A stretch of 64,000 nucleotides of DNA from Escherichia coli (GCF_022846255.1 NZ_AP025682.1); one strand, 5' to 3'. Positions 24,905-31,892 are shown, numbered from the stretch's first letter. The notes: generated by a model not told the origin, from the letters alone. A program made the numbers and translations.

Positions 24905-25145
24905 GTTGATACCGCAATGCGGTGTAATCGCGTGAATTATACGGTCAACCCTTGCTGAGTCAATGGCTTTTGATCTGGTTGCTGAACAAGTGAACGACCG
25001 CGTCTGATTTTCTGATTTATTTCGTTATAGCGGCAAACAAACGCACACCGCTGCGCGTCTGAATCAAGAAAACCCGTATTTTCATGTATCAAGTACAATT
25101 TACCGCCCTAACGGAAAATTGTCCGATCCAATGAGACTGGTAACT

Positions 25146-25778
25146 ATGAAACCAACGTCGGTGATCATTATGGATACTCATCCTATCATCAGAATGTCTA
25201 TTGAAGTTCTGTTGCAAAAAAACAGTGAATTGCAGATTGTCCTGAAAACGGATGATTACCGCATAACCATCGATTATCTCCGAACCCGTCCTGTTGATTT
25301 AATCATTATGGATATAGACTTGCCCGGTACAGACGGTTTTACCTTCCTGAAAAGGATCAAACAAATTCAGAGTACAGTGAAAGTATTATTTTTATCATCG
25401 AAATCAGAATGCTTTTATGCTGGCAGAGCGATACAAGCTGGTGCTAACGGTTTTGTCAGTAAATGCAATGATCAGAATGATATTTTTCATGCCGTTCAGA
25501 TGATCCTCTCCGGATACACTTTTTTTCCCAGCGAAACGCTCAACTATATAAAAAGCAATAAATGTAGTATGAATAGTTCAACGGTCACTGTGCTATCTAA
25601 TCGTGAAGTAACCATATTACGTTATCTGGTTAGCGGATTATCTAATAAAGAAATTGCCGATAAGTTATTACTTAGCAATAAAACAGTTAGTGCACATAAA
25701 TCTAATATTTATGGCAAGCTAGGTTTGCATTCAATTGTAGAGCTTATCGACTACGCCAAATTATATGAATTAATATAA
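25146..25778 (+). CDS. fimZ: Fimbrial response regulator FimZ (LuxR/NarL family)
   Basis: Start at ATG 25146 (MKPTSVIIMDTHPI...); the ORF track begins at an upstream TTG. Receiver domain plus LuxR-type HTH. Confidence 0.92.
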   Translation: MKPTSVIIMDTHPIIRMSIEVLLQKNSELQIVLKTDDYRITIDYLRTRPVDLIIMDIDLPGTDGFTFLKRIKQIQSTVKVLFLSSKSECFYAGRAIQAGANGFVSKCNDQNDIFHAVQMILSGYTFFPSETLNYIKSNKCSMNSSTVTVLSNREVTILRYLVSGLSNKEIADKLLLSNKTVSAHKSNIYGKLGLHSIVELIDYAKLYELI

Positions 25779-25780
25779 TA

Positions 25781-26296
25781 TTAATTATAATTGATCATAA
25801 ATATCGCATCCGCTTTCGCCACACCAGGCTGAACACCGCTGGCTAACGCTCGATAATTGGCAAAAAAGTTTAGTGTGACATTGCCATTTGCATCAACTTC
25901 CTCAGTCGAGCTCGCCTCCCCCAGTGCGAGCCGGGAGCGATCGCTATTACGTAATTCGATGGCGACGGTTTGTGCCATTGCGGGATCATCCAGAGCCAGC
26001 AGGTTGGCATCAGATGCCGGCGTTCCCGTAAATAAAATCGCAACTGAACCCGGAGGACATCCCTCCAGCCGCAGGCTAAAAGGGACGAGTGCCGTGGTAT
26101 CGCCAGCGCTCAGTAATTGTGTCGTAGGCCATCTGCCTAAATCTACCGTCTTATCCTTATCCGCTGTGTTTACGGTACAGGAGAAATCAACAACGTTACC
26201 GTGCAAATTGATATTAATCGTTCCTAAAGGGTCAACTGCCCATCCACTGGAACTCCACAGTAGCCCGCAGAAACAGCTAAAGAGTACTCTTCTCAT
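25781..26296 (-). CDS. sfmF: Fimbrial minor subunit SfmF
   Basis: Start MRRVLFSCF... with signal peptide (171 aa); the ORF-track N-terminal extension is rejected. Confidence 0.88.
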   Translation of the reverse strand: MRRVLFSCFCGLLWSSSGWAVDPLGTININLHGNVVDFSCTVNTADKDKTVDLGRWPTTQLLSAGDTTALVPFSLRLEGCPPGSVAILFTGTPASDANLLALDDPAMAQTVAIELRNSDRSRLALGEASSTEEVDANGNVTLNFFANYRALASGVQPGVAKADAIFMINYN

Positions 26297-26306
26297 TCTC
26301 CGTACC

Positions 26307-27314
26307 TCATTGATAATCGACGCGTAAATACCCCAGCGCGCTAAACGGCCCTTCGGTCGGTTTTTGACCGGTAATACTGATAGGCCAGGCGCGAAGTGTG
26401 ACATTGGCTGCCGCAGCTGCATCCAGACGGAAAGGAATAACGCTATTGAGATCATTAGGCGTGATCGGCGTATCGTTCTGATCGGCCACAATAAAACCTA
26501 AATCCTGATTGTCCGACACCATCGCCTGACCAGAAACGGCGCTGGCTTCCAGACGCATTGTTAAATAAGCCTGCGCAGCAACATTCGTACATTTGATCGC
26601 AATGCTCTTGGTTTGCGGCATGACACCAGCTGGTCGATTCCCCGGCCCTGCCGCACTAAATAACGATGCGCCGATATCACCAAAATCAAATTCAACAATT
26701 TGCCCGGCATTTAATTCGCAGTTTTGCGGTACTTCAACCCGGCCACCAAAACTAATGGTATAAACAGGTGTAACCAACGGATCGTTAGGCGTTGATGTCA
26801 CATACACGGTAAACATCACCTGTCTGGGGATCTCCACCATGTTAATAAAGGGACGAATAACCTTTAAACGAAATATCAAATGAGAATCCATCACCCCGAA
26901 CGGAAGGTTTTGCGAAACGTTAGGATCTGTTCCCATACGAATATAATTTTGCGGAGGGAATTGAATATCCATCACGCTATCAACCAGACTCATCGCACCT
27001 AATAGATAATCATTTAATTGCATATATTTATAATTATCGATAGTTTCCTGAACAATAAAGTTGGTGACATAACTACGGTATGTATAATTCACCAGCGTGC
27101 CGGGTGGACAAATTGCTGATACACCTACCCAGCCGGATTTTTCCGGTAAAACAACAATCTGCCCTGGCTGGTTATTGGGGCTATTAAAGACATTTGAGAG
27201 ATCATAGTGTTCATCTTCTGCTACGCCAGTACTATTTGCACAAACAGTAGCCCAGGATATGTTTGTTAACCACAAACATGCCATCGCCAATAATAATCTG
27301 CAGATTATCTTCAT
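26307..27314 (-). CDS. sfmH: Fimbrial adhesin-like subunit SfmH
   Basis: Signal peptide; FimH-like two-domain size; start could be the internal Met 10 codons downstream. Confidence 0.85.
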   Translation of the reverse strand: MKIICRLLLAMACLWLTNISWATVCANSTGVAEDEHYDLSNVFNSPNNQPGQIVVLPEKSGWVGVSAICPPGTLVNYTYRSYVTNFIVQETIDNYKYMQLNDYLLGAMSLVDSVMDIQFPPQNYIRMGTDPNVSQNLPFGVMDSHLIFRLKVIRPFINMVEIPRQVMFTVYVTSTPNDPLVTPVYTISFGGRVEVPQNCELNAGQIVEFDFGDIGASLFSAAGPGNRPAGVMPQTKSIAIKCTNVAAQAYLTMRLEASAVSGQAMVSDNQDLGFIVADQNDTPITPNDLNSVIPFRLDAAAAANVTLRAWPISITGQKPTEGPFSALGYLRVDYQ

Positions 27315-29936: not shown

Positions 29937-29966
29937 AATTAGCTCTGATATTGTCAGATGATTCGG

Positions 29967-30659
29967 TTAGTTTAAGTTCACTTCTCTGACCGGGGTTACT
30001 GAACCATAATCATTAACGGTCTGAAATTTCAGCTTTCCCTGCACTCCTGAGGGTAAGGGAATTTGTGAATTAACTCTGGGTGCAGCCATAGCATTCCCCA
30101 GTTTTTGGCTGCCCACTTGCAAGTTAACCAGGGTGACATAAAAAGGTGATGGATTATGAACATTGATATAGTTACCGGATCGCGAAAACTTGAGTGTGTC
30201 CGGCGCTTCTGCGGGTAATTCTTGTAATTGAATTGGACGGAGAAATAATTTCATGCGCGATAAAATCGCCAGTTGCAAAACATTCCTGCCGTTCAATGCA
30301 TTTTTATCTACCGAAGGGATCGTCTTAACATTCATCCAGAACAGAGACTCACGATCTGCCGCCAGCGGTGGACCGGTGTAAATAATACGCAAAGTATTTT
30401 CGCTTTTGGGTTCACTAACAAACAGTGGCGGTGTAATGATGAATGACTTTTCTTTTACACCGCTGCTGTTTTCAATCCACGAATTGACCAGAAAGCGCTC
30501 ATTGGTATGGCTATTTCTAATCCATACCGCAGTCTGTTTAGCATCAGCGGGATAAATAATACGCGTGGCACCTAATGCGATCCCTCCGGCAGCATGGGCG
30601 CTGGCCGAAATGATTAAATAAAATATAATGAGCATCAATAACTTTATTTTAGTCATCAT
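29967..30659 (-). CDS. sfmC: Fimbrial periplasmic chaperone SfmC
   Basis: 230-aa PapD/FimC-family chaperone with signal peptide. Confidence 0.93.
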
Positions 30660-30878
30660 AGTTAATACGCCTTGTGTATTCCTGACGGCAAAAATAAGGA
30701 GTATAAAGAAATGATTGCTTTGGTTTCTTACAACACATCATTCCCTTTTCATTTAATAAAGCGGCATGATACAAAGTGAGCGTGATTTCGATTTACATTG
30801 CCACCATACCGCTTCAGACAACCGGTACATTACTTTGTTATAAGACGTGATATATAATTCAAAACAACGTGGTTTTGA

Positions 30879-31421
30879 TTATTCGTATCTCATAATAAAA
30901 GTCGCGTCAGCATTTGCTTGCCCTGCTGATGCACTTGTACCGGTACCTTTATAACGTGCAGAAAAATGAAGAACGTTGGTCCCGGGGATCAAGTTCTGGT
31001 TGGTTGAGAAGCTATTCCCATCAGGTTTGAGAATTGCGGATGTATTATCAAGTATTTCAATACCGACACCCGTTGCTGTTGTTGTATTAGTACTGGATGC
31101 AATGGCCAATAAATTATCATTGATTGCATCCGCCTGACCAGAAAATGCAACGGCAGCATTAGCGGCAACGACAGGATCGCAGTCGTTCAACTGTATAGTG
31201 AATGGAATTAATGCAGAGGTATTACCAACAGCATTGAAAATATCGGTACGATATTGACCGAGTGTGACAACCTGGTCTGCCGAGTCAGTATTCACTGAAC
31301 AGGCAGCATTCACCAGTTCGCCTTCAAAGTGAATTGTACCGCCATCTACAACGGCAGCATAACTACCCGTAGCGGCGAATAGTGCGGCAGCCAGCGCAGA
31401 CGAAATAAATCTTAATTTCAT
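30879..31421 (-). CDS. sfmA: Fimbrial major subunit SfmA
   Basis: Start [22 protein letters not shown] (signal peptide); FimA-like; the ORF track extends 11 codons upstream. Confidence 0.9.
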
Positions 31422-31892
31422 ATATATTCCTTCAATCTCATTTATCGACTCCACATCCGTATATAACCGATTACTTTATTTAAGACACTGATAGTAGTAA
31501 AATTCCTTTTTATCCTCTAAGAATGTCTTAATTGAAAATATGCACTCTATTCTAAAAAATAGAGAGCCTCGTTAGATGAATATTTCCGCGCAAAATATAT
31601 TCAACACAAATATAGACCTGAAGCGGTAAATTACCAGGCTGAAAATTCTTTTTATATTGTCAGGTATTTCTTAAATTATCTTAATCCTTAGACAAGGAAA
31701 TAAATCAGTTCCAGATTTACAACGTCATCATGGACGAAAAATGAAGCTTTCAATCTCAGCGACGGTGCGCCTCACCTTCGCAAGAGGTCGCTTCACGCGA
31801 TAAATCTGAAACGAAACCTGACAGCGCGCCCCGCTTCTGACAAAATAGGCGCATCCCCTTCGACCTACGTAACAGATGGAATCCTCTCTCTG

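Follow-up and report, generated by a model that had tools for sequence, protein, structure and literature searches.

The sfm fimbrial operon of Escherichia coli: gene content, promoter region and a conserved hairpin downstream of the major subunit gene

How the expression of a chaperone-usher fimbrial operon is set, and how its major subunit may be made in excess of the assembly proteins, are the questions raised by positions 24,905 to 31,892 of a 64,000-nucleotide (nt) stretch of Escherichia coli DNA (GCF_022846255.1, NZ_AP025682.1), here called the window. An earlier examination of this DNA (the original prediction) recognized the sfm fimbrial operon and the regulator gene fimZ, and pointed to two potential control devices: phase variation by inversion of the AT-rich DNA upstream of sfmA, in which a short inverted repeat was noted, and an attenuator in the gap between sfmA and sfmC that would adjust the stoichiometry of the major subunit. 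Taken together, the analysis presented here indicates that the locus is very probably an sfm operon orthologous to Salmonella fim, silenced by H-NS and activated by phosphorylated FimZ, with a promoter that is not invertible and with an RNA hairpin that may bias expression toward sfmA.

The locus is the E. coli sfmACDHF operon, together with argU, a neighboring tRNA gene, and fimZ, the regulator gene that converges on it, and as such is ordinary and already published. Over its 7 kb the sequence shows 99.7% identity to many chromosomes of E. coli, in which it is annotated as fimZ, sfmF, fimH, sfmD, fimC, fimA, and folD, and the RefSeq annotation of K-12 MG1655 has the same layout, sfmACDHF-fimZ-argU. 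The genes are as follows.

24828-24904, minus strand: argU, tRNA-Arg(UCU), equivalent of Salmonella fimU, reading the rare AGA codon (ARAGORN; Rfam tRNA, 72 bits)
25146-25778, plus strand: fimZ, orphan response regulator of the NarL/FixJ type, 210 amino acids (aa) (Pfam Response_reg and GerE; 72% identical to Salmonella FimZ and of equal length; fimZ in RefSeq)
25781-26296, minus strand: sfmF, minor fimbrial subunit (Pfam Fimbrial; 58% identical to Salmonella FimF)
26307-27314, minus strand: sfmH, two-domain tip-adhesin homologue, 335 aa (Pfam Fimbrial at residues 187-335; 71% identical to Salmonella FimH and of equal length)
27327-29936, minus strand: sfmD, outer-membrane usher, 869 aa (Pfam PapC_N, Usher, and PapC_C; 70% identical to Salmonella FimD)
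29967-30659, minus strand: sfmC, periplasmic chaperone, 230 aa (Pfam PapD_N and PapD_C; 63% identical to Salmonella FimC)
30879-31421, minus strand: sfmA, major fimbrial subunit, 180 aa (Pfam Fimbrial; 64% identical to Salmonella FimA, 100% to K-12 SfmA)
31893 onward, plus strand: folD (RefSeq annotation of the best match and of K-12)

The Pfam domains of the encoded proteins make up a complete chaperone-usher set and a REC-GerE response regulator. SfmD carries an usher domain (E = 3e-222) flanked by PapC_N and PapC_C, SfmC is a PapD-like chaperone, and the pilin domain PF00419 is found in SfmA, SfmF, and SfmH; in SfmH it is confined to the C-terminal residues listed above, and the N-terminal domain is putatively receptor-binding. 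FimZ matches Response_reg (E = 1e-27) and GerE (E = 2e-23), and the phospho-acceptor Asp56 is readable in the translation. All six open reading frames (ORFs; sfmF, sfmH, sfmD, sfmC, sfmA, and fimZ) are uninterrupted; the proteins share 95-100% identity with their K-12 counterparts (100% for SfmA and SfmC, 95-99.5% for the rest) and 58-72% with the Fim proteins of Salmonella. Domains and RefSeq annotation thus agree with the original prediction on a complete sfmA-C-D-H-F set, as do gene coordinates and strands on a fimZ (plus) convergent with sfmF (minus), on an sfmA start at 31421, and on a folD start at 31893; fimZ itself was also called correctly, with its start at 25119, which is the first in-frame TTG of the ORF, to be replaced by the annotated ATG at 25146.

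By position and by sequence, the locus is the ortholog of Salmonella fimAICDHF-fimZ(YW)-fimU without fimI, fimY, and fimW, and sfm has been called an ortholog of Salmonella fim before (PMC3604780; PMC3559732). The orthologous loci used for comparison were obtained by a protein search with SfmA and by contig look-ups, and come from Salmonella (L005), Citrobacter (L007), and two E. albertii-like genomes (L006 and L008). Synteny is the same in Salmonella, Citrobacter, and E. albertii, with the cluster lying between folD and tRNA-Arg(UCU) and with fimZ convergent. A scan of a genome collection with SfmC peptides yielded only one fragment of the E. coli type and a single distant chaperone, from Lelliottia, and was of no use for comparison.

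The 471-base-pair (bp) spacer between sfmA and folD is, as originally described, long and AT-rich: its GC content is 37.8%, and that of the sfmA-proximal 300 bp is 29.8%, compared with 51.5% for the whole window. It can be aligned with the folD-fimA spacers of E. albertii, Salmonella, and Citrobacter and is 97-100% conserved within E. coli; the spacers of the operon are about 98-99% identical to those of K-12, with a few single-nucleotide polymorphisms and one difference in the length of a T-tract. The folD-proximal 100 bp or so is nearly invariant across genera, forming a block that is kept in all five species aligned. Four features of the region are relevant to its promoters.

31422-31892, divergent: sfmA-folD intergenic region, with the sfmA promoter, a putative long leader, and the folD promoter; aligns with folD-fimA spacers
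31609-31614, minus strand: putative sfmA -10 element, TATATT, from alignment to the mapped Salmonella fimA promoter; implied leader about 180 nt
31647-31691, minus strand: counterpart of the Salmonella FimZ-binding region (alignment columns 283-345), with two TTAAGA repeats 10 bp apart and a conserved ATAAAAAGA
31818-31846, plus strand: folD promoter-like site, CTGACA-17-TG-CAAAAT (promoter scan), inside the block conserved across genera

Placement of the sfmA promoter depends on the Salmonella fimA start site, which was reconstructed at L005:8807 from motif coordinates in PMC3203922; the numbering is self-consistent, in that all four published Lrp motifs land on matching sequence, and it gives a Salmonella leader of 194 nt. 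The alignment then suggests that TATATT is the -10 element of sfmA and that a leader of some 180 nt precedes the coding sequence. In Salmonella, FimZ binds the fimA promoter region from -98 to -47 (PMC3203922), and its aligned counterpart is a candidate FimZ site in E. coli. The putative leader has no significant structure (folding z = -1.38), and no credible small ORF is present in the 471-bp spacer.

The spacer holds some further repeats and polymorphisms. A module of the promoter region, ATTAAGA...ATAAAAAGAATTTT (31642-31685), recurs in part 142-153 bp farther downstream, within the presumed leader (31500-31532; direct repeats D1 and D4), and this second copy could be another FimZ site, an H-NS site, or an AT-rich coincidence. 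The only length polymorphisms seen within E. coli are a 9-bp tandem duplication, GTCGCTGAG, at 31755-31763 in some strains (e.g., NWU_4) and a T-tract at about 31499-31502, which is T4 in the window strain and T3 in K-12. The sequence CGATAAAT is found in two inverted copies about 350 bp apart at the ends of the spacer, at 31440-31447 (minus) and 31798-31805 (plus), and only six times when both strands of the 64 kb are counted; it resembles the high-affinity motif of H-NS, tCGATAAATT, a resemblance that is suggestive only.

Silencing by H-NS and activation by phosphorylated FimZ are taken from the literature. According to the summary of Korea et al. (2010) given in PMC5797941, sfm is cryptic, poorly expressed, and repressed by H-NS, and when driven from a constitutive promoter it promotes binding to eukaryotic cells; an involvement of H-NS, which the original prediction had envisaged, agrees with this account. 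FimZ is described as the sole orphan response regulator of E. coli, the phosphorylated form of which induces sfm transcription in K-12 (Ogawa et al., 2022, in the accounts of PMC10767902, PMC12471899, and PMC12711010).

Downstream of sfmA, the operon is interrupted by a gap of exactly the 219 bp originally reported. Two features are considered here.

30660-30878, minus strand: sfmA-sfmC spacer, 219 bp, at the position of fimI in Salmonella and Citrobacter; no Rfam match
30759-30815, minus strand: RNA hairpin, 57 nt, with an 11-bp basal stem (AGCGGUAUGGU/AUCAUGCCGCU), a variable interior, and then UUAUUAAAU (UUUAUU with the last U of the stem)

The gap exists because Escherichia lost fimI, and is a scar of that loss relative to the Salmonella ortholog: fimI (177 codons) lies between fimA and fimC in Salmonella and Citrobacter and is absent in E. 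coli and in both E. albertii-like loci. By eye, only the last 45 bp or so of the gap resemble the Salmonella fimI-fimC spacer, where blastn gives no match. As for a remnant of fimI, tblastn with Salmonella and Citrobacter FimI matched only the paralogous C-terminus of SfmA, and blastn gave only chance matches of 8-12 nt in Salmonella and Citrobacter, so that none was detected. An ORF of 30 codons (MMCCKK...) lies in the gap and overlaps the start of sfmC; its E. albertii version stops after three codons, and it is discounted as a gene. The gene call for sfmC in the E. albertii-like loci gives 269 aa (L006 9749-10558; L008 9758-10567), with about 40 extra residues in the signal-peptide region relative to the 230 aa of E. 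coli.

The corresponding fimA-fimI spacer of Salmonella is the reported source of FimR2S, a CsrA-binding small RNA (sRNA) (PMC9723502). The sfm gap contains no CAGGGA motif and two GGA in 219 nt, versus two CAGGGA and five GGA in the 74 nt of the Salmonella spacer; it has no likeness to the K-12 FimR2 sequence, and a search of Rfam at E <= 1 over 24500-32500 returned the tRNA only. The two FimR2-like CAGGGA motifs are thus present in the Salmonella spacer (L005 9559-9632) although E. coli fim and Salmonella fim are described as non-orthologous, while sfm, the true ortholog of Salmonella fim, has lost the CAGGGA/FimR2S-like element.

What the gap does contain is a hairpin that begins 61 nt past the sfmA stop codon. 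Its 11-bp base has five G-C pairs and two wobbles, and encloses a partly paired interior of 32 nt; the sense strand folds with -22.4 kcal/mol, versus -15.8 for the antisense strand. In the three Escherichia lineages (E. coli and the two E. albertii-like loci) the arms are conserved and the folding energy stays near -22 kcal/mol despite diverged interiors; the comparison covers only two or three effective lineages. The two differences in the arms are U.G and G.U in E. coli versus C-G and A-U in the E. albertii-like loci, and therefore pairing is kept only in the sense RNA. The hairpin occurs once per genome, and in metagenomes only in the context of sfm; a pattern search of metagenomes for covarying hairpins found the E. 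coli-type and E. albertii-type copies and unrelated chance matches, and no further lineages. No published description of an sfmA-sfmC hairpin was found.

The attenuator of the original prediction therefore receives weak and indirect support from a conserved hairpin, which is not a canonical intrinsic terminator, a simple terminator scan failing to flag it. An attenuator or stabilizer function is thus weakly supported, and the element would at most be a new instance of a design known from pap and CFA/I. With more doubt than confidence, it may be proposed that the spacer, after the loss of fimI and of a FimR2S-like element, acquired a lineage-specific 57-nt element that acts as a partial terminator, as a processing or 3'-protection site, or as the source of an sRNA derived from the 3' untranslated region, and that uncouples sfmA from sfmCDHF. 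A second AU-rich hairpin lies directly after the sfmA stop, at 30859-30878 (minus strand; UCAAAAC-CACGUU-GUUUUGA followed by AUUAUAUAU); it is present in E. coli and deleted in the E. albertii-like loci.

Several observations weigh against the picture of an activator-dependent promoter followed by a functional hairpin. On the promoter side, a simple scan of the spacer returned no sigma-70-like match for the strand of sfmA, so that the -10 element depends on the alignment; the lack of such a match is to be expected of an activator-dependent promoter. The counterpart of the Salmonella FimZ region also has a 12-bp deletion in Escherichia, and the architecture of the site may differ. On the hairpin side, none of the 11 pairs shows a double-sided compensatory change, the gap as a whole folds only modestly better than shuffled sequences (z = -2.26), the interior is long, and the tail, UUUAUU in E. 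coli, is AUAUUA in E. albertii, a poor U-tract.

An invertible switch of the fimS type, with an inverted pair flanking the sfmA promoter and a recombinase encoded elsewhere, would fit a long AT-rich spacer and the frequency of phase variation among fimbrial operons, and spaced inverted pairs are indeed present, such as one of 12 nt (92%) with 81 nt between the arms and one of 11 nt (91%) with 173 nt. The probability of this explanation is nevertheless close to nil. The inverted repeat noted originally near 31545-31566 exists, with a slightly different extent:

31542-31567, no strand assigned: inverted repeat GCACTCTATT-6 nt-AATAGAGAGC, in which 31542-31551 pairs with 31558-31567 (9/10 complementary), in the presumed sfmA leader

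Its core arms, CTCTATT and AATAGAG, make seven perfect pairs, and extension gives the 9/10 match of the full arms. Dinucleotide shuffles of the spacer produced an equally good hairpin-type repeat in 159 of 1000 cases and a perfect 7-mer in 313 of 1000; the repeat is one of 26 inverted pairs in 500 bp, all of which are the chance yield of sequence with 30% GC, and it is identical in K-12 and not found in E. albertii, Salmonella, or Citrobacter. The repeat is regarded as a product of chance, and it cannot flank the promoter because its loop is only 6 nt. When FimE and a lambdoid integrase were compared by tblastn with the whole 64-kb window, the best match had E = 0.28 over 13 aa, and neither a FimE-like nor an integrase-like ORF was found, as the original prediction had held for the vicinity of the operon. 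Orientation was compared at the level of assemblies, a rough test relative to one made on reads: a 601-nt query spanning sfmA-folD matched 5,438 places in 5,424 E. coli genomes, i.e., 14 extra places, whereas the positive control, the fimE-fimS-fimA region, gave 276 extra places in 4,722 genomes. The query is colinear in 4197 genomes, at least as many as carry the sfmA-sfmC gap (4180), so that among some 4,200 sfm-bearing genomes there is essentially no orientation polymorphism, and the orthologous fimA promoter of Salmonella is documented as non-invertible (PMC3604780). Phase variation by inversion through the short repeat is thus not supported.

Two further explanations concern the gap and the state of the operon. 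That the conserved gap sequence works as DNA, for example as a palindrome bound by a protein or as an internal promoter or operator for sfmCDHF, and not as an RNA hairpin, is very unlikely: conserved arms around an unconserved interior would also suit a bipartite DNA site, and genomic SELEX (systematic evolution of ligands by exponential enrichment) gave a weak peak of RNA polymerase holoenzyme in the K-12 sfmA-sfmC spacer (PMC5493296), but the differences in the arms can pair as G.U wobbles only on the sense RNA and would be A.C mismatches in DNA or on the antisense strand, folding favors the sense over the antisense strand by 6.6 kcal/mol, and a dimeric operator with arms 32 nt apart would be unusual. 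Somewhat less remote, and still improbable, is the idea that the operon is a decaying relic in which the inverted repeat, the hairpin, and the gap are neutral debris from the deletions of fimI, fimY, and fimW, without any regulatory role. In about 1227 of 5424 complete E. coli genomes, sfmACDHF-fimZ is missing as the result of a single clean deletion, and what remains is folD-270 bp-argU (L010 6058-6329); in these genomes similarity to the 601-nt query stops at position 142 of the query, at about 31809 in the window and about 84 bp upstream of folD. This deletion agrees with published reports that phylogroup B2 lacks sfm (PMC3604780; PMC3559732), and sfm is reported as incomplete in Shigella (PMC3604780). 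A relic would also be in line with an SfmA that is 5 N-terminal residues shorter than Salmonella FimA, with the loss of fimI and of the FimR2-like motif, and with natural expression of sfm being unreported by 2013 (PMC3604780). Standing against it are the six intact ORFs with their 95-100% identity to K-12, the low diversity of sfmA within the species (PMC3604780), the adhesion phenotype on forced expression (as summarized in PMC5797941), and the induction of the operon by phosphorylated FimZ (as related in PMC12471899 and PMC12711010); in addition, conservation of the hairpin arms exceeds that of the spacer around them, in lineages whose SfmA proteins share only about 75% identity.

The preferred account, an intact and regulated ortholog of Salmonella fim, has several parts. 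Within the sfmA-proximal 300 bp or so, at 30% GC, there would be a promoter that is weak and depends on an activator, followed by a leader of about 180 nt; under laboratory conditions this promoter would be kept silent by H-NS, and phosphorylated FimZ would switch it on, probably through TTAAGA-type repeats upstream of the -35 region, as in Salmonella, with no DNA inversion involved. Past the end of sfmA, the hairpin at 61 nt probably shifts the message ratio in favor of sfmA over the genes that follow, through partial termination or protection of the sfmA 3' end, as in other fimbrial operons, and the neighboring argU tRNA likely helps to translate the AGA-rich sfm and fimZ genes.

In support of the last part, AGA accounts for 2 of 4 arginine codons in sfmA, 3 of 11 in sfmC, 3 of 8 in sfmF, and 2 of 8 in fimZ, and the gene for the tRNA reading this codon lies adjacent. 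Enrichment of AGA in the small sfm genes and fimZ matches a codon bias reported in PMC2408971, and a coupling to the neighboring fimU has been described for Salmonella. The argU promoter is near consensus (TTGACT-16-TATAAT at 24963-24936). Between argU and fimZ is a spacer of 241 bp without an ORF, and fimY and fimW are absent beyond fimZ. The argU attachment site is unoccupied in the window strain, where the order is envY-argU-fimZ (24022-24904); in K-12 (prophage DLP12, intD), in the best-matching strain GF131, and in many other strains, a lambdoid prophage integrase adjoins argU, and the prophage-free arrangement is found in 2804 of 5424 genomes. The E. albertii-like loci have an unannotated ORF of 163-167 aa between fimZ and envY.

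At the other end of fimZ, its stop codon and that of the convergent sfmF are 2 bp apart (25776-25783), in comparison with a 45-bp spacer in Salmonella, and no terminator-like site is present between or near these stop codons. The two transcripts would overlap, and antisense interference between sfm and fimZ is therefore possible.

The importance of these results is modest, since the operon, its orthology to Salmonella fim, silencing by H-NS, dependence on FimZ, and patchy distribution have all been published. What is added is that the idea of an inverted-repeat switch is cleanly excluded and that the 219-bp gap is explained as a scar of fimI loss; the conserved hairpin offers a concrete target for studying the excess of sfmA over the assembly genes.

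One of the closest known systems is the fim cluster of Salmonella, which likewise lies between folD and tRNA-Arg(UCU) with the same gene order and orientation, a convergent fimZ, and proteins 58-72% identical. The alignable promoter region appears to include a counterpart of the FimZ region and a long leader, the promoter is non-invertible, and AGA-rich genes stand beside the cognate tRNA gene in both. Salmonella has in addition fimI between fimA and fimC, and fimY and fimW beyond fimZ, so that sfm is better regarded as an ortholog with gene loss than as a full member of the group. Other differences are the CAGGGA-bearing, FimR2S-like spacer between fimA and fimI, in place of which sfm has an unrelated AT-rich spacer of 219 bp with a different hairpin; the 12-bp deletion in the region of the FimZ site; the 2 bp instead of 45 bp between the fimZ and sfmF stops; and the 5 residues by which SfmA is shorter at its N-terminus. 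Sfm is also reported as a non-binder of mannose, unlike Salmonella Fim (PMC3604780). The organization of K-12 sfmACDHF-fimZ (b0530-b0535) is identical to that of the window operon, one difference being that K-12 carries DLP12 with intD at argU and that this site is empty in the window strain (envY-argU).

The fim (type 1) operon of E. coli, which is not an ortholog of sfm or of Salmonella fim (PMC3604780), resembles sfm in that both are chaperone-usher operons that begin with the major subunit gene and have a structured RNA region right after it. In fim, a 314-bp element is inverted by two tyrosine recombinases, FimB and FimE, whereas at sfm a recombinase is missing, flanking repeats do not rise above chance, and there is no polymorphism of orientation; and the fimA-fimI spacer of fim encodes the sRNA FimR2, the sequence and GGA motifs of which are absent from the sfm spacer. 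With respect to the hairpin, the nearest parallels are papBA, where a processed mRNA ends in a 3' terminator structure, and CFA/I, where differential decay operates: as in sfm, a stable hairpin follows the major subunit gene and precedes the assembly genes. The sfm hairpin differs from these in its partly paired 32-nt interior and imperfect U-tract, and in being missed by the terminator scan; its arrangement is compatible with a putative function in partial termination or 3'-end protection, as in papBA and CFA/I.

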